From Escherichia coli (GTDB taxonomy: Bacteria; Pseudomonadota; Gammaproteobacteria; Enterobacterales; Enterobacteriaceae), in NCBI RefSeq assembly GCF_003334815.1, contig NZ_QOWO01000075.1: DNA of 4,783 bases, one strand, 5' to 3'. Numbering within the stretch: position 1 is the stretch's first letter; each line of letters starts with the position of its first letter. Position numbers and translations under genes: made by a program. Under the pieces are notes generated by a model. It was not told where the DNA came from and searched no databases. It worked only from the letters and a program-made list of their open reading frames with translations. This document shows, piece after piece, positions 1-4,783 of this stretch.

Positions 1-200
1 GGTCCCTCCTTCCCGTCTGCCGTGATTTTCCGGTCGTTCACCCGCTCAGATTTCGCGGTCTCACCCTCCAACTCCCGTCAGCCGTGTGCGTCAGGCTGCG
101 GCTTCCCTTGCGCCCTTGCATCCCCGCCTTATCGCCCGGCTTTTCTGGAGGCACGGCACCGCCCGGTGTCGCGGAATATGTGAACAACGGAGGAAATCCC

Positions 201-626
201 ATGCAGTATGCGAAACCTGTCACTCTGAACGTTGAAGAGTGCGACCGCCTTTCCTTTCTGCCTTACCTGTTTGGCAACGATTTTCTGTATGCCGAGGCGT
301 ATGTGTACGCGCTGGCGCAAAAAATGATGCCGGAATATCAGGGAGGCTTCTGGCATTTCATCCGCCTGCCGGATGGTGGCGGTTACATGATGCCGGATGG
401 CGACCGTTTTCATCTGGTCAACGGTGAAAACTGGTTTGACCGCACTGTGAGTGCTGATGCCGCAGGTATCATCCTGACTTCCCTTGTGATTAACCGCCAG
501 TTGTGGCTGTACCACGACAGCGGGGATGCGGGACTGACACACCTTTACCGGATGCGTGATGCGCAGTTGTGGAGCCACATTGAATTTCATCCCGAATGTA
601 ACGCGATTTACGCAGCACTGGACTGA
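201..626 (+). CDS. klcA: Anti-restriction protein, ArdB/KlcA family (141 aa)
   Basis: ATG at 201 preceded by GGAGG (189-193, 7-nt spacer). Translation carries family-typical blocks: [36 protein letters not shown] and C-terminal AIYAALD. The 141-aa length fits this family; the upstream in-frame start at 84 has no RBS and would give a poorly coding GC-rich extension. Confidence 0.85.
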
Positions 627-635
627 TTAACGGAC

Positions 636-654
636 GGGGCGGCGATGCCGCCCC
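636..654 (+). other. Intercistronic GC-rich hairpin (8-bp stem GGGGCGGC/GCCGCCCC, 3-nt loop), no U-tract
   Basis: Perfect inverted repeat 636-643 / 647-654 lying between the klcA stop (624-626) and the next gene's RBS (GGAG 661-664). Downstream sequence is not T-rich, so not a classic intrinsic terminator. Confidence 0.6.
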
Positions 655-672
655 TGTAAAGGAGACGAGAAC

Positions 673-1092
673 ATGTACTGTACTGTTAAAGAAATTATCC
701 GCGAAGTGCTGAATACAGACGTGCCGGACAGTGAATGTGTTTTTGCCGTGGTGCTGACCCGCGGGGATGTGCGCCACATAGCCCGGGACTGGAACCTGTC
801 AGACGATGAGCTGGAAACCGTCATGCAGCGGCTGGACGATGCTTTTGTATATGGCGCATGTGACAGAGTTGTTTCCGATATTGTCAATGAACTGATGGAG
901 GAAAAGCGCGTAAACCGTCTTGTAACAGTCCCTGCGGTGCTGCTGGAAAAAGTGATGGTGATGGCTGGTAGTGAAATTTATCGCCTCCATGCTGTAGGGA
1001 GCGAGAACGGGGGCGACGGTGACGCATTTGTCAGGGAAGAACGTGAGATTATGCGGGTAATGCGTCAGGCACTGGACGGGGAGAACGGGTAA
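673..1092 (+). CDS. Hypothetical leading-region protein, 139 aa (possibly DUF1380-like; assignment from memory, unverified)
   Basis: ORF with GGAG at 661-664 and 8-nt spacer to ATG 673. Acidic protein with coding-like composition; same strand and tight spacing with neighbours. Stop TAA 1090-1092 overlaps the next start. Confidence 0.75.
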   Translation: MYCTVKEIIREVLNTDVPDSECVFAVVLTRGDVRHIARDWNLSDDELETVMQRLDDAFVYGACDRVVSDIVNELMEEKRVNRLVTVPAVLLEKVMVMAGSEIYRLHAVGSENGGDGDAFVREEREIMRVMRQALDGENG

Positions 1093-1310: not shown

Positions 1311-1448
1311 TCAGCCCGCGCGAAAACCCCTGGCAGGCTGGCGCCTGCCGGAAGGGATGCGGGCCACGCTGGCGCGTCGCCCGTTACCCTTCCCGTTTGT
1401 GATGTGTCCGGAATGTTTTTTCCTGATGTTATGTTTCTGTGGTTACTG

Positions 1449-1477
1449 TTCTTCTTCTTCTTCTTCCTCTTCTTTCC
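1449..1477. repeat. Polypyrimidine simple-repeat tract containing (TTC)6 at 1449-1466
   Basis: Direct reading: ttcttcttcttcttcttc followed by ctcttctttcc; pyrimidine-only on the + strand for 29 nt. Confidence 0.9.
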
Positions 1478-1837
1478 GTTCCTCTCCTGTTTATGCCTTT
1501 TCCGGGCGTCCCCCTGGCGGGGCGGGCTGTCGTGAACGGAGCCAGCGGAGCTGTCTCCGCCCTGGCGGGCTTCCATCCCTGACGCAAAACCCCGGGTTTG
1601 CAGCGACCGGAACGGTCGCGCCACCCTTGTCGCGCCGTGGCCTGCGCTCCTGGCATCCCGGCAAAAAGACGCCGGGATGTAAGGCGCAACGCCGTTTCGC
1701 GCACGCGCTCTCCGTCGTTGCGGCGGGTCCCTGCTCATTGCCTGCCGGGTGCCACACACCCGTATGAGTCCCTGTCGCCGGGGGCTGATACAGCCACAAC
1801 CTGCCGCACTGACTGTCCAGGGTAAATGAACAGCCCA

Positions 1838-1873
1838 CAAAATTTTTTACCCAGAACCCGGTAAAAAATTTTG
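1838..1873. other. Perfect 14-bp AT-rich inverted repeat (CAAAATTTTTTACC / GGTAAAAAATTTTG) with 8-nt spacer
   Basis: Arms 1838-1851 and 1860-1873 are exact reverse complements. Flanked by a further imperfect pairing, 1813-1821 with 1882-1890 (8 of 9), suggesting a longer imperfect hairpin centred near 1855. Confidence 0.8.
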
Positions 1874-2252
1874 CGTTCTGCCCAGGACAGGTGCGTCAGG
1901 CCGTGGCAGTGATGCCCCTTGCGGCGAAGGTTCTCAAACGGGTGAAGTTCATACCACAGGGAATACAGCAGCAGGTTCCCGCGAAACGTCAAAACCGCGG
2001 CTCCCGAAACTCAACGGGTGATGTTCTTTAAAAATCAGGATTTATTTCAGGCTCCGGCAATACGCATTTATGTGTTCTGTCAGCATCCTGCTGACAGGTA
2101 ATGAGAACGCAGGAACAGAAGGAGGAATACACCGGAAAACGTCAGATGCAGATATGAAAAAAGCAGGTCAGGGACCTGCTTAATCCACGCCGAAGAGACT
2201 GTGCAACCAGTCTTTAAGGCACTGTTACCAACCTGTCATAAGGTATCCATTT

Positions 2253-2483
2253 ATGACTGTAAGCATTGTTTCACCTTCCGCAGCGGCTGTAAAGCCCCGT
2301 CGTCATACCCGTTTCAGACGCGAAGACATCCCCGCGCCGGAAATTGACCCCGTGCTGAAAGCCTTCGGGCGACACATTGCCCGGAGTTTTCGCCGGGGGC
2401 GTGGTGTACACATCCCCGCCATGAAAAACACGGCTTTCGGGCAGGTGCTCCGCACACTCGAACTGAAACGCGCTTTTAACTGA
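2253..2483 (+). CDS. Small arginine-rich hypothetical protein, 76 aa (possibly DUF905/UPF0401-like; unverified)
   Basis: ATG 2253 with weak SD (AAGG 2240-2243, 9-nt spacer); first ORF downstream of the structured element; co-oriented. Many R/K residues (KPRRHTRFRRED, RSFRRGRG). No motif recognised with certainty. Confidence 0.55.
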   Translation: MTVSIVSPSAAAVKPRRHTRFRREDIPAPEIDPVLKAFGRHIARSFRRGRGVHIPAMKNTAFGQVLRTLELKRAFN

Positions 2484-2491
2484 TGAGGTGA

Positions 2492-2511
2492 GCCGCCCCG
2501 CGAGGGGCGGC
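2492..2511 (+). other. Intercistronic GC-rich hairpin (8-bp stem GCCGCCCC/GGGGCGGC, GCGA tetraloop)
   Basis: Perfect inverted repeat 2492-2499 / 2504-2511 between the stop at 2481-2483 and the RBS AGGAG 2523-2527 of the next gene. Uses the same octamer pair as the 636-654 hairpin, in swapped arm order. Confidence 0.6.
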
Positions 2512-2534: not shown

Positions 2535-3896
2535 ATGACATTATCAGCAATCACCATGACCGCCCCGGAAGCCGCCAGCCCGGTGCAGATGTACCGCGCG
2601 ACCTACTCACCGGATGATAACAAACTGCGCCTGTATGCCGCGTCACGTCTTGACCCGGAGACGTATAAAAAAGTGCATGATGCCGGTTTTCGCTGGGCAC
2701 CAAAACAGGCGCTGTTTGTCGCGCCAGCCTGGACACCGGGCCGGGAAGACGTGCTCCTCTCACTTGCCGGAGAGATTGAGGATGAAGACAGCACGCTCGC
2801 TGAACGTCAGGAAGCACGGGCGGAGCGGTTTACCGGATACAGCGGAAAGCGGGCCAGTGAATCCGCACAGGCACTTGATGAAGTGGAAAGACTGGCCGCG
2901 ATGATCCCGCCCGGTCAGCCCATTCTTGTGGGGCATCACAGCGAACGCCGCGCCCGTCGTGATGCGCAGCGTATTGAAAACGGCATGAAACGTGCCGTGA
3001 TGCTCTTTGAACGTGCGGAATACTGGGAAGAACGGGCGCGGTCGGCACTGCTTCACGCGAAGTATAAAGAACGCCCGGACGTTCGCTGGCGTCGTATCAA
3101 AAAAATCGAAGCGGATTTGCGCAAGGCTGAAAAGACCATCGCACAGTCGCAGAAATATCTGACGATGTGGCGGGCTGAATCGCTGGATCTGAATATGGCA
3201 AAACTCATCAGCAGTCATGACCATATCAGCGCCTGTTTCCCGCTGGATACGTATCCGCGCCCGGCAGAAAAAAGCCAGTATGAAGGGAGCCGGTCGTTAT
3301 GGTCGGCCCTGGATGATGACATCATCACCACGGAGCAGGCCCGCGAAATTGCGATCCGCTGTCATGAACGGCAGATTCAGCATCAGCAACGCTGGGTTAA
3401 CCACTATCAGAACCGCCTGATCTATGAGCGTGCCATGCTGGACGAAAGCGGCGGCGTGGTTACCCGGACACAGGATTTTGAGCCGGGCGGACAGGTTTTC
3501 AGCCGGGGCGAGTGGCTGACCATCATCCGCGTGAACAAAAGCAACGGGGCGGTGAGTTCAGTCACAACGCCGAATTACAGTTTTCTCGGGTACAGCGGCA
3601 CGATGAAAGTGACGCCCGATCGCATCACGGACTACAAAGCACCATCGGCAGAAGAGGCTGCCGTCGCCAGTCAGGCCGCGAAGCGTCCGCCGGTAGTCAA
3701 CTATCCGGGGGAAGGTTTCCGGGAAATGACAAAGGCACAGTGGGCCGCCCTGCCCCGGGACTGTAAGGCCGTGCGCAGTGTGGCAGAGACAGAAGACCAC
3801 GGGGCATACCGCTACCGCCGCACAATGGATAATAATTTCCGCCTGGTGAGTGTGTATATTACCGACATGAAAATCACGGAAATCCCACAGAAATAA
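2535..3896 (+). CDS. Protein of unknown function, 453 aa (possibly DUF3560-type leading-region protein; unverified)
   Basis: Long ORF with RBS AGGAG at 2523-2527 and 7-nt spacer to ATG 2535. Central highly charged, probably helical segment (ERQEARAERF ... RRARRDAQRIENGMKRAVMLFERAEYWEERARSALLHAKYKERPDVRWRRIKKIEADLRKAEKTIAQSQKYL). No catalytic motif recognised by eye. Confidence 0.9.
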   Translation: MTLSAITMTAPEAASPVQMYRATYSPDDNKLRLYAASRLDPETYKKVHDAGFRWAPKQALFVAPAWTPGREDVLLSLAGEIEDEDSTLAERQEARAERFTGYSGKRASESAQALDEVERLAAMIPPGQPILVGHHSERRARRDAQRIENGMKRAVMLFERAEYWEERARSALLHAKYKERPDVRWRRIKKIEADLRKAEKTIAQSQKYLTMWRAESLDLNMAKLISSHDHISACFPLDTYPRPAEKSQYEGSRSLWSALDDDIITTEQAREIAIRCHERQIQHQQRWVNHYQNRLIYERAMLDESGGVVTRTQDFEPGGQVFSRGEWLTIIRVNKSNGAVSSVTTPNYSFLGYSGTMKVTPDRITDYKAPSAEEAAVASQAAKRPPVVNYPGEGFREMTKAQWAALPRDCKAVRSVAETEDHGAYRYRRTMDNNFRLVSVYITDMKITEIPQK

Positions 3897-3901
3897 GGTA
3901 T

Positions 3902-3927
3902 ATCCCCCCGGGAAATCCCCGGGGGAT
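3902..3927 (+). other. Intercistronic hairpin containing two CCCGGG palindromes
   Basis: ATCCCCCCGGGAAATCCCCGGGGGAT: outer 7-bp stem 3902-3908 / 3921-3927, a C-C mismatch, inner 3-bp stem 3910-3912 / 3917-3919, loop AAAT. Lies between the stop at 3894-3896 and the RBS GGAG 3931-3934. Confidence 0.5.
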
Positions 3928-3942
3928 GACGGAGATAATGAC

Positions 3943-4506
3943 ATGCACAGTCAGTTAAGAGAACGTATCCGGCTGCTGCGCGCAAGGCTGGATAACGCCG
4001 CACCGGTTGCTGAAATCCGGGCTGAATCTCAGCTTTTTGTGACACCTGCCCCGGTCTGTGATCGCCTGGTGACGCTGGCGGAAATCAGCAATCGTGATCA
4101 CATTCTGGAACCCTCTGCCGGCACCGGGGCCATACTGCGGGCGATTCGGGATACCGCGCCGGAGGCCATGTGTGATGCGGTGGAGAGCAACAGCGGGCTG
4201 GTCCGGTATCTGCGGGAAAATTTTAACGGTGTCAGGGTACAGTGTGGCGACTTCATGGAATGGCAGCCGGTGCAGTATTACAGCCGGATTATCATGAATC
4301 CGCCGTTCAGCCACGGGCAGGATATCCGGCATATCCTGCGGGCCTTTTCCCTGCTGCGTCCGGGTGGCGTTCTGGTCGCCGTCTGTCTGAACGGGCCACG
4401 CCAGCAGGAGAAGCTGTTACCGTTTTCTGACATCCGCGAGGAGCTGCCGCGCGGCACGTTTGCTTATACCCATGTTCCGACGATGATTATTCGTCTGCGC
4501 GCCTGA
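3943..4506 (+). CDS. Orphan SAM-dependent methyltransferase, 187 aa (amino-methyltransferase fold; N6-adenine/N4-cytosine DNA MTase-like, no recognisable target-recognition domain)
   Basis: RBS GGAG 3931-3934 with 8-nt spacer. Motif I (AdoMet binding) ILEPSAGTGAIL near residue 55; motif IV NPPF near residue 119 (IIMNPPFSHGQD). Motif order I then IV and the small size indicate a minimal MTase core. No adjacent restriction endonuclease gene in the window. Confidence 0.85.
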   Translation: MHSQLRERIRLLRARLDNAAPVAEIRAESQLFVTPAPVCDRLVTLAEISNRDHILEPSAGTGAILRAIRDTAPEAMCDAVESNSGLVRYLRENFNGVRVQCGDFMEWQPVQYYSRIIMNPPFSHGQDIRHILRAFSLLRPGGVLVAVCLNGPRQQEKLLPFSDIREELPRGTFAYTHVPTMIIRLRA

Positions 4507-4577
4507 TGACACAGGCAGGCGGGAGGATAAATGCCCGTCTGCCCGTGCCGGGAAAAAGACCGCGCGCCGGTGGCGCT

Positions 4578-4609
4578 GAAAGGGGCCGCGCTGACGCGCC
4601 GCCCCTTTC
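4578..4609 (+). other. GC-rich hairpin downstream of the MTase (13-bp stem with one mismatch, 6-nt loop), contains GCCGCCCC
   Basis: GAAAGGGGCCGCG (4578-4590), loop CTGACG, CGCCGCCCCTTTC (4597-4609). Followed only by a short TTTC, so at best a weak terminator. Confidence 0.5.
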
Positions 4610-4654
4610 ATTGCGCGGACGTTCTGCTGTGGACTTCTGTCTTTTCAGAACGGT

Positions 4655-4783
4655 CATTTGTCTGTTACTGATGATGTTGTTGTTCCTGCTACTGCTACTG
4701 CTACTGTTCTTCTTTTTTCTGCTGCTCTGATTACTGTCTGTTTTGTTGTTCTCCTGCTTATGCCTTTTCCGGGCGTCCCCCTG
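4655..4783 (+). promoter_or_regulatory. Start of a second copy of the Frpo/ssi-like element (truncated by window end)
   Basis: 4751-4783 (ctcctgcttatgccttttccgggcgtccccctg) matches 1484-1516 at 32 of 33 positions. Upstream there are shared ttactgttcttctt and ctgatgtt blocks plus a different simple-repeat tract. Confidence 0.6.
4670..4750. repeat. Compound simple-repeat tract: (GAT)2(GTT)3 at 4670-4684, (CTGCTA)3 at 4686-4703, T-rich pyrimidine run
   Basis: Direct reading of the sequence; differs in unit and copy number from the tract at 1449-1477 in copy 1. Confidence 0.9.

Follow-up and report, generated by a model that had tools for sequence, protein, structure and literature searches.

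What is the short, arginine-rich reading frame that follows a candidate single-strand promoter in the leading region of a conjugative plasmid of the IncF type, and at what moment of the plasmid's life would its product be made? The stretch of DNA analysed here, referred to below as the window, is 4,783 bp long and represents a part of such a leading region; it is matched by more than 5,000 PLSDB records at 90–97% identity. A previous interpretation of the same DNA, made from its letters without database searches (the sequence-only reading), had regarded this frame as the first gene behind the promoter, supposed that its product would be the first one made in the recipient, and proposed nucleic-acid binding from its highly basic composition.

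The features of the window are gathered in Table 1. The listed genes of the annotated order are all encoded by the plus strand; the T (transferred) strand, which from the established geometry of F-type transfer we take to be the minus strand, would be their template. Past the window, in the direction of oriT, the relatives carry ssb, a DUF905 gene, a ParB-like gene, psiB, psiA, hok and a DUF932 gene. The frame in question, ydaB, is separated by a gap of 51 nt from ydbA, which has an independent Shine–Dalgarno sequence, and the DNA match to Klebsiella runs through the GC-rich hairpin of this gap, up to position 2528 of the window. The third cistron encodes a methyltransferase-like protein with the motif NPPF at residue 119, matching both the MTase_II and the orphan methyltransferase models. 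The comparison with the F plasmid revealed that the ydaB–ydbA–methyltransferase module is absent from F. An operon with M.EcoGIX was also considered and rejected, M.EcoGIX being a 227-aa methylase located upstream of klcA and outside the window.

Table 1 Features of the 4,783-bp window, with their positions, strands and the basis of each assignment
Feature	Position	Strand	Basis
klcA-type antirestriction gene	201–626	+	Annotated relatives
DUF1380 gene	673–1092	+	Annotated relatives
63-aa ORF after the DUF1380 gene		+	Annotated relatives
Non-coding stretch of ~960 bp between the 63-aa ORF and ydaB			Annotated relatives
Homologue of the Frpo-type (class 1) single-strand promoter, expected rightward transcription	1483–2023	+	blastn to F Frpo2/Frpo1
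Leader/spacer, degenerate remnant of a 75-aa upstream ORF	2034–2157	+	Klebsiella comparison
Predicted AS-pc01-like cis-antisense sRNA, ~100 nt, three hairpins	2158–2258	-	Rfam RF02875
Predicted intrinsic terminator hairpin of the sRNA, 9 bp, followed by a T run (together to 2155)	2161–2181	-	Terminator scan
Shine–Dalgarno-like sequence of ydaB, UAAGGU	2239–2244	+	Sequence; 8 nt 5' of the ATG
ydaB CDS, 76 aa, Arg-rich, YdaB/YdfB family	2253–2483	+	Sequence, homologues, dN/dS
Predicted sigma-70 promoter of the sRNA, within ydaB codons 5–14	2265–2293	-	Promoter scan
GC-rich intercistronic hairpin in the ydaB/ydbA gap, GCCGCCCC-GCGA-GGGGCGGC, without a T run	2492–2511	+	Sequence
ydbA, DUF3560, 453 aa, next cistron after ydaB	2535–3896	+	Pfam PF12083 (1e-36), annotation
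Class I SAM-dependent DNA-methyltransferase-like gene, 187 aa, third cistron	3943–4506	+	NCBIfam, PHROG, PADLOC
Beginning of a further Frpo copy, which precedes ssb in related plasmids	4510–4783	+	Repeat families, F Frpo matches

Concerning the coding status of ydaB, it should be pointed out that the window, a GC-rich DNA, contains 60 open reading frames of at least 30 aa, so the size of a frame by itself proves nothing. The frame extends from the ATG at 2253 to the TGA at 2481–2483 and its product, MTVSIVSPSAAAVKPRRHTRFRREDIPAPEIDPVLKAFGRHIARSFRRGRGVHIPAMKNTAFGQVLRTLELKRAFN, contains 12 arginines and 4 lysines versus 5 acidic residues (D/E), giving a net charge of +11 and a computed pI of about 12, in agreement with the high basicity claimed before. 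Its counterpart in the Klebsiella IncFII(K) plasmids is 77% identical at the DNA level, with both the frame and the length kept and no indels; the differences are distributed over the first, second and third codon positions as 10, 9 and 31, and the dN/dS ratio is 0.11 (Nei–Gojobori). The gene was found by tblastn in at least 5,000 PLSDB plasmids, and 94 of the 120 best homologues have exactly 76 residues. The coding status is settled by these comparative data—the dN/dS ratio, the kept length and the homologues—on which ydaB is a real gene under purifying selection; both the frame itself and its conservation, the absence of which the sequence-only reading would have taken as evidence against its proposal, have thus been borne out. 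In the sources the gene is named YdaB or hypothetical protein, the latter being the PGAP designation, and the searched literature contains no experiments on YdaB.

A profile search among 1.84 billion representatives retrieved 86 cluster representatives at E ≤ 1e-3, mostly of 75–120 aa, the top matches in AFDB50 bearing the names YdaB and YdfB (UniProt/AFDB entries), with YdfB being the paralogue from IncI1. YdaB/YdfB is a small family of very basic proteins of 75–90 aa from conjugative plasmids of Enterobacterales, ydaB being its founding member. In the alignments, the N-terminus is variable with the exception of two invariant residues, I5 and V13, and is followed by a basic stretch R-x-H-x-R-I-x-R and by a core of the form IDPxLKAFGRHIA ... 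V(H/R)IPAM ... G(Q/H)xLRxLELKRA. The protein of the window has the features by which the family may be recognised, i.e. a length of 75–90 aa and the core G/A-R-H-I-A...V-(H/R)-I-P-A-(M/L)-x5-G-(Q/H)-x-L-R-x-L-E-(L/I)-x-R-A. The C-terminal 45 residues are strongly conserved, down to homologues of 35–45% identity, with synonymous variation in the DNA. All the retrieved loci—25 from contigs of one genome per species, together with plasmid and metagenome loci—come from Enterobacterales and have a leading-region context. In the window and in those loci that reach the transfer genes, the family gene is situated between ssb/psiB/ardA and traM or nikA, on the same strand, and in the loci examined its orientation is always that of a gene transcribed from the T strand.

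With regard to structure, the AF2 model of YdaB (pLDDT 76.5; above 84 for residues 31–70) predicts a disordered Arg-rich N-terminal tail (RRHTRFRR) and two helices, residues 33–47 and 59–75, with pLDDT of 84–90, so that the protein may be described as a predicted helix-loop-helix core carrying a disordered basic tail. A linked-dimer model, built from tandem copies with a Gly-Ser linker as a test of the ribbon-helix-helix arrangement, was of low confidence (pLDDT 49.8, pTM 0.29) and yielded no new strands; no helix-turn-helix was detected in YdaB, either. The searches against NCBIfam, PHROG and PADLOC gave no significant match, nor did the comparison with solved and predicted folds outside the family, and the best result of the sequence-profile search in the PDB was uL4 at an E-value of 0.097, not significant. 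The earlier statement that no family motif can be recognised securely was therefore correct, apart from a weak partial match to one Pfam model considered below. The identity with DUF905/UPF0401, a Pfam test that had been suggested, turned out negative, since there is no match to PF06006 even at E ≤ 10; DUF905 is a separate gene located after ssb.

The element upstream of ydaB had been described as a candidate single-strand promoter. According to blastn, positions 1–2023 of the window correspond to positions 8554–10610 of F, from klcA through Frpo2, at 90.5% identity, this homology ending 34 nt before the ATG of the F ssb gene; the segment 1483–2023 is also 82.5% identical to Frpo1 of F. The analysis of direct repeats places the element at approximately 1452–2033, and a related plasmid (L001) possesses three direct Frpo copies, one each before ydaB, ssb and a ygeA-like gene. 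The minus (T) strand of the segment 1700–2040, folded as DNA, gives a long imperfect hairpin with an energy of -94 kcal/mol (z -9.4). Based on the homology with F, the direct copies and the strong hairpin of the T strand, the element is identified as a true homologue of Frpo, oriented as required, so the candidate has been confirmed as such by sequence comparison. Early expression in F depends on both Frpo1 and Frpo2 (PMC9849209), and RNA polymerase-dependent transcription from single-stranded DNA, with the start site mapped, has been shown for the elements of F and pESBL (PMC9849209, PMC12672017); by analogy, the copy preceding ydaB would be expected to act as a promoter, too. A second single-strand promoter in the leader (2030–2270) was considered and rejected, the minus-strand fold there having a z of only -1.9 and consisting of short hairpins only.

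Whether ydaB deserves to be called the first gene behind this promoter depends on the lineage. The homology with F stops at 2023, and 230 nt lie between Frpo and the ATG of ydaB. Frame 2 of this leader, ending with QEQKEEYTGKRQMQI and a stop codon, matches the end of a Klebsiella frame, DQLKKEEEEAGSKPQI followed by a stop codon, the window having stop codons further upstream; in the Klebsiella IncFII(K) plasmids the corresponding ORF of 75 aa, located between Frpo and ydaB, is intact. In one of the compared loci (L004), the Frpo-like element is at 3399–3773 and the 75-aa ORF follows at 3783–4010. In most other members of the family, the ydaB-like gene is preceded by one to three genes, and the upstream neighbour in other plasmids, a protein of 114–144 aa, is more constant than the downstream partners; the upstream gene of 114 aa has no match in Pfam or NCBIfam. 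The sequence evidence thus makes ydaB the first intact cistron of its own unit, and this in a lineage-specific manner, so that the earlier designation holds for the window as far as intact frames are concerned, although not for the relatives and not without a leader carrying a remnant of an ORF. The further expectation, that YdaB would be produced first in the recipient, was wrong: roughly 11 kb separate the ydaB unit from oriT, and two Frpo copies, those preceding ssb and the ygeA-like gene, enter before that of ydaB, which makes the ydaB unit the third one from oriT; its product would not be the first to appear in the recipient.

The sequence-only reading missed the feature from which most can be learned about this locus, a gene for an antisense sRNA lying over the start of ydaB. 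The match to the Rfam family RF02875 runs on the minus strand from 2258 to 2158, end to end with the positions 1–99 of the model and with the same three hairpins, at 68.7 bits (E 4e-12); owing to the divergence of stem-loop 2, the score stays under the gathering threshold of 79. The Klebsiella homologue, at the identical position relative to ydaB, scores 97.7 bits. RF02875, or AS-pc01, is described in Rfam as "Antisense to pHK01_035", and we infer that pHK01_035 is ydaB. By virtue of the cis overlap, the sRNA would be complementary to the ydaB mRNA from its 5'UTR across the Shine–Dalgarno sequence and the AUG up to nucleotide 6 of the coding sequence. It has the elements of its own transcription unit on the minus strand, namely a predicted promoter with a -35 box TTTACA, a spacer of 17 nt and an extended -10 box TGaAACAAT, and a predicted intrinsic terminator. 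The fold of the sRNA has an energy of -38.2 kcal/mol (z -4.0), and two of its stems exhibit compensatory changes between E. coli and Klebsiella. The promoter-bearing segment of the ydaB frame, nucleotides 16–54, is nearly invariant between these two, third positions included. The folding of the plus-strand RNA predicts a hairpin at 2233–2258 in the mRNA, which holds both the Shine–Dalgarno sequence and the AUG and mirrors stem-loop 1 of the antisense RNA. At the level of sequence and comparison, the existence of the sRNA gene may be regarded as demonstrated.

This arrangement was followed across 23 distinct loci of the IncF, IncI, Hafnia, Serratia, Yersinia and Buttiauxella types, whose YdaB-like proteins are 35–50% identical to that of the window. 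An antisense RNA of about 100 nt, ending in a hairpin and a U run, is predicted in all 23, and the single-sequence folds share a common layout, i.e. a region opposite to the start and the Shine–Dalgarno sequence, a GC-rich middle hairpin, and a terminator GCAG...CTGC with a U run. Pairing in the terminator helix is preserved in 97% of the cells over the 23 loci, with covariation between GC and AU pairs. RNAalifold on a MAFFT alignment of the antisense regions recovered the terminator only; the middle hairpin folds in each sequence and is misaligned. An antisense promoter with a score of at least 9 is present within the 5' end of the coding sequence in 23 of 23 loci, and 20 of them reach a score of 10. 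Only 0.2% of shuffles and 2.5% of other windows do so, and no site of the plus strand does. The homologous -35 box (TTTACA or TGGACA) with a 17-nt spacer is found in 22 loci; in the exception (L006), the best-scoring promoter is a different site and the sRNA is predicted to be shorter, of about 85 nt. The -10 box overlaps the codons of (S/T)-I-(I/V) and the -35 box those of (Y/A)-V-(K/Q), and it is this overlap with the promoter boxes that would account for the invariant I5 and V13 in the otherwise variable N-terminus. Rfam RF02875 detects one distant copy weakly, at 30 bits, and the IncI and other plasmids score 30 bits or less; the family as curated covers only the close sequences of the IncFII type, the wider conservation found here being absent from the model. 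It should be noted that ydaB as a hypothetical protein and the sRNA as a narrow Rfam family are already in the databases; the coupling of the sRNA with ydaB throughout the family, the promoter embedded in the coding sequence and the implied strand-asymmetric timing appear to be new.

The strand on which each element resides suggests a mechanism, the timing of which is deduced from what is known of F-type transfer and of Frpo. When the T strand enters the recipient, the Frpo hairpin would recruit RNA polymerase, and, by homology to Frpo1 and Frpo2, the ydaB–ydbA–methyltransferase unit would be transcribed before the complementary strand exists. The template of the sRNA would be the non-transferred (plus) strand, and the recipient lacks this strand as long as the complement has not been synthesised; no sRNA would therefore be expected until the plasmid is double-stranded, and in its absence at entry YdaB would be translatable only within this single-stranded interval. 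After the conversion to the double-stranded form, the sRNA would pair with the Shine–Dalgarno sequence and the AUG and shut ydaB off, the downstream cistrons possibly being dampened as well. On balance, YdaB would be made briefly in the new transconjugant and ydaB would stay silent in cells in which the plasmid is established, and the antisense sRNA thus probably limits YdaB to a brief period after entry. As for the activity of the protein, its basic composition, charge and predicted disorder, above all the Arg-rich tail, favour nucleic-acid binding as the most likely one, as had been proposed before; YdaB would bind the incoming DNA or RNA, maybe alongside the DNA-modification or anti-restriction genes that nearly always follow. 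Taken together, a leading-region gene within a Frpo-driven unit, with an antisense shut-off that leaves a pulse of a nucleic-acid-binding YdaB, is the explanation we consider best, and the balance of probability leans slightly in its favour. A more far-reaching version, in which the antisense gating of the whole family constitutes an "entry timer" and YdaB is a SymE-like nucleic-acid-binding effector, potentially toxic if its synthesis is sustained and aiding the establishment of IncF and IncI plasmids, is put forward tentatively and is rather to be doubted than believed as a whole.

Some published data bear on these proposals. In pO157, the gene EDL933_RS28935, 97% identical to ydaB, is transcribed and increased 9.6-fold after ciprofloxacin (stranded RNA-seq); at the protein level, the DUF3560 product was detected and that of EDL933_RS28935 was not. 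This fits silencing in established cells, although the evidence from the non-detection is weak, the detection of small and basic proteins being difficult. In the IncI1 plasmid pESBL, Tn-seq found Hp17 to be neutral with respect to maintenance as well as to transfer into a laboratory strain; Hp17 matches the YdfB homologue by its size and by its position after ArdA and Hp16. Any role of YdaB would on this ground have to be a conditional one. Neutral behaviour in Tn-seq is usual for conditional establishment genes.

Two other functional explanations deserve to be weighed against the antisense-limited pulse. YdaB and AS-pc01 could be a type I toxin–antitoxin system of the SymE/SymR kind, in which YdaB would inhibit growth as a nucleic-acid-binding protein and the sRNA would be the antitoxin, serving post-segregational killing or stabilising the region between the recombining Frpo repeats. 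Its architecture is that of symE/symR, with an antisense RNA over the ribosome-binding site and the start and a promoter just inside the coding sequence, and the sRNA and the small protein have been kept as a unit in all 23 loci, so the pairing of an antisense RNA with the translation-initiation region, characteristic of type I systems, is present here by the cis overlap of the predicted sRNA. Leading regions are enriched in toxin–antitoxin genes (PMC11541004), the distance from ydaB to hok/sok is a few kb, and the presence of the mRNA with an undetected protein in pO157 would fit as well. The small hydrophobic membrane peptide, however, which is typical of type I toxins although not universal among them, is not what is seen here, YdaB being hydrophilic, with its strong positive charge and no membrane or hydrophobic segment; ydaB is, moreover, embedded in operons with neighbours 43–90 nt away on either side rather than forming a stand-alone cassette, and in the pESBL Tn-seq the short intergenic stretch in which the antisense gene would be located was not reported as a maintenance region, the coding sequence being neutral. 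A toxin–antitoxin function is held to be unlikely, although not far-fetched. Somewhat harder to credit is the proposal that YdaB serves the product of the following DNA-modification or anti-restriction gene as an accessory or regulatory subunit, for instance by directing the methyltransferase to the incoming single-stranded DNA or by regulating its gene in the manner of a controller protein. What speaks for it is that the family gene is followed, 43–67 nt on, by an N6-methyltransferase-like gene (approximately 16 loci), a DUF4942 gene, or a DUF3560 gene plus the NPPF methyltransferase, and that M.EcoGIX and similar leading-region methyltransferases have single-stranded DNA as a substrate and confer protection from restriction (PMC4288162, PMC7736820). 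The downstream partners are, however, not homologous to one another, and some of them are no methyltransferases, such as DUF932 (L033), which follows at the like distance, and the proteins of 145–211 aa with unknown function in the Buttiauxella plasmids, the N6-methyltransferase-like protein itself being a truncated one of 276 aa without the catalytic NPPY motif. The more constant neighbour is the upstream one, and YdaB shows no helix-turn-helix. With partners so heterogeneous, the link to methyltransferases may reflect only the general make-up of leading regions.

The remaining two explanations concern the nature of ydaB itself. That it might be just a translated leader, the translation of which opens the mRNA for ydbA, or a frame that merely hosts the antisense promoter, is suggested by the N-terminal 15 codons, constrained by that promoter rather than by protein function, and by the sequestration of the start region of the ydaB mRNA in a hairpin. 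This role is contradicted by the C-terminal core of 45 residues, strongly conserved as amino acids despite synonymous variation and modelled confidently by AF2, and the 51-nt gap together with the separate Shine–Dalgarno sequence of ydbA does not favour it either; we thus regard it as very improbable. A miniature nucleoid protein of the HU/IHF type is the explanation given the least credence, hardly any chance being left to it. It stems from the sole Pfam match of YdaB, to HU-CCDC81 (PF14908, formerly DUF4496), with an i-E-value of 1.9e-4 over residues 23–62, and from the name DUF4496 or "CCDC81 family HU domain 1" borne by some database entries. The match is, however, partial (positions 16–55 of a model of 89), it is shared by only 3–4 of 32 family members, and the alpha-alpha-beta-beta-beta-alpha fold with beta arms that defines HU proteins is not the fold predicted for YdaB, so that the membership was rejected.

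Returning to the preferred reading, the Frpo-driven unit with its antisense shut-off, its relevance follows from the distribution of the gene: ydaB is present on at least several thousand sequenced plasmids of the IncF type, and the YdfB paralogue on about two thousand more, apparently of the IncI1 type. Plasmids of these two types are the main vehicles of the spread of antibiotic resistance in Enterobacteriaceae. The coupling with an antisense RNA whose template strand would be absent at entry provides a testable model of a protein confined to the first minutes in a new host, and a conserved N-terminal motif, puzzling as protein sequence, would be explained by the promoter that the other strand carries at this place. 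Silent mutations of this promoter would represent a simple genetic handle on the function of YdaB. If the tentative entry timer were true, it would define an unrecognised class of antisense-gated early conjugation factors on thousands of clinical IncF/IncI plasmids.

Among the known systems, the ydaB unit resembles the early genes of F that are driven by Frpo (ssb, psiB and ygeA; PMC9849209), with an element 82–90% identical and the same orientation with respect to oriT and the T strand. Transient expression from single-stranded DNA would be expected for the ydaB unit as it is for these genes. The genes of F start, however, 33–34 nt after the element, whereas ydaB is preceded by a leader of 230 nt carrying the predicted antisense sRNA gene; the Frpo early genes of F are not known to have an antisense RNA. 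With hok/sok (flm), ydaB shares a site in the leading region and an antisense RNA from the opposite strand that blocks the translation of a small protein, the block being a proposal in the case of ydaB. Hok is a hydrophobic membrane toxin translated via coupling to mok. YdaB, by contrast, is highly basic and soluble, and no similarity to sok of Rfam is found at the ydaB locus. In symE/symR of E. coli, a cis-encoded antisense RNA of about 80–100 nt covers the ribosome-binding site and the start, its promoter lying in the first codons of the target, and SymE is a small, hydrophilic, nucleic-acid-binding protein with an AbrB-like fold, which is SOS-regulated and chromosomal. The likeness consists in the antisense RNA over the translation start, the promoter inside the coding sequence and a small hydrophilic target; the difference is that YdaB matches SymE neither in fold nor in sequence and belongs to an operon of a plasmid leading region behind a single-strand promoter. 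Altogether, ydaB with its sRNA is rated as a variant of the cis-antisense-gated small proteins.

The module formed by ydaB, ydbA and the methyltransferase gene is absent from the F plasmid (window 2024-4750 versus 10610-10650 of the F locus L014), and in the window it is flanked by two direct copies of Frpo, the F-plasmid single-strand promoter; a recombination event between these repeats could therefore remove or introduce the module as a cassette. Directly upstream of each copy lie pyrimidine-rich, microsatellite-like tracts, the repeats across the two sites being (TTC)n, (CTG/CTA)n and TGTTG; on the transferred strand these tracts read as runs rich in purines. The 85-aa hypothetical protein annotated in some records within the Frpo hairpin, its ORF overlapping the repeated non-coding Frpo element, is probably a spurious call. 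Three gaps between cistrons each contain a perfect, very GC-rich hairpin (listed in the table with the other features), all of them short, positioned 20-30 nt 5' of the next Shine-Dalgarno sequence and devoid of a T run; these could represent mRNA-stabilising elements, processing elements or ssDNA structures.

Features of the window and of retrieved loci carrying YdaB-like genes
Feature	Location	Strand	Position or context
GC-rich perfect hairpin	window 632-655		klcA/DUF1380 gap
GC-rich perfect hairpin	window 2492-2511		ydaB/ydbA gap
GC-rich perfect hairpin	window 3906-3926		ydbA/methyltransferase gap
Pyrimidine-rich tracts	window 1441-1490 and 4671-4750		directly 5' of each Frpo copy
85-aa ORF	L001 (related plasmid) 9729-9986; window 1735-1992	minus	inside Frpo hairpin
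Conserved 114-144-aa protein gene	L013 4562-4906; L008 5553-5915; L011 4428-4862		5' of YdaB-like gene
'N-6 DNA methylase' gene	L013 5298-6128; homologues in L006, L015-L026, L029		3' of YdaB-like gene

Concerning the wider neighbourhood, the steadiest neighbour of the YdaB-like genes is a gene whose 114-144-aa product matches nothing in Pfam or NCBIfam. This gene ends approximately 85 nt 5' of most of them, its stop codon adjoining the antisense terminator, and is missing from the window's own E. coli IncF lineage. On the downstream side, many plasmids of Enterobacter, Cedecea, Pantoea, Lelliottia and Serratia carry an 'N-6 DNA methylase' of only 276 aa, possessing the SAM-binding motif I (DPASGAAG) and lacking the catalytic NPPY/F motif. 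This protein could be methyltransferase-like yet inactive, perhaps acting as a decoy or anti-restriction factor.

In one IncI-type contig (L007 6001-6240), the YdfB-like ORF of the protein P0160 opens with an 18-residue peptide also encoded in the non-coding start of the window (22-183), 5' of klcA, a match indicating a putative recombination junction that fuses a klcA-upstream element to the ydfB core.

The plasmid pO157 is non-conjugative. After ciprofloxacin, its leading-region genes (20613-21609 and 23948-24403 in the EDL933 locus L041) are strongly up-regulated—klcA 33-fold, the DUF1380 gene 23-fold and ssb 7-fold—and an old ORF call, Z_L7079, listed between the DUF1380 gene and ydaB, rises 125-fold (PMC11125564 Table 2). 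This table position suggests that Z_L7079 is located in the Frpo region; if so, its increase would suggest that Frpo-type elements fire outside conjugation, upon DNA damage or exposure of ssDNA.
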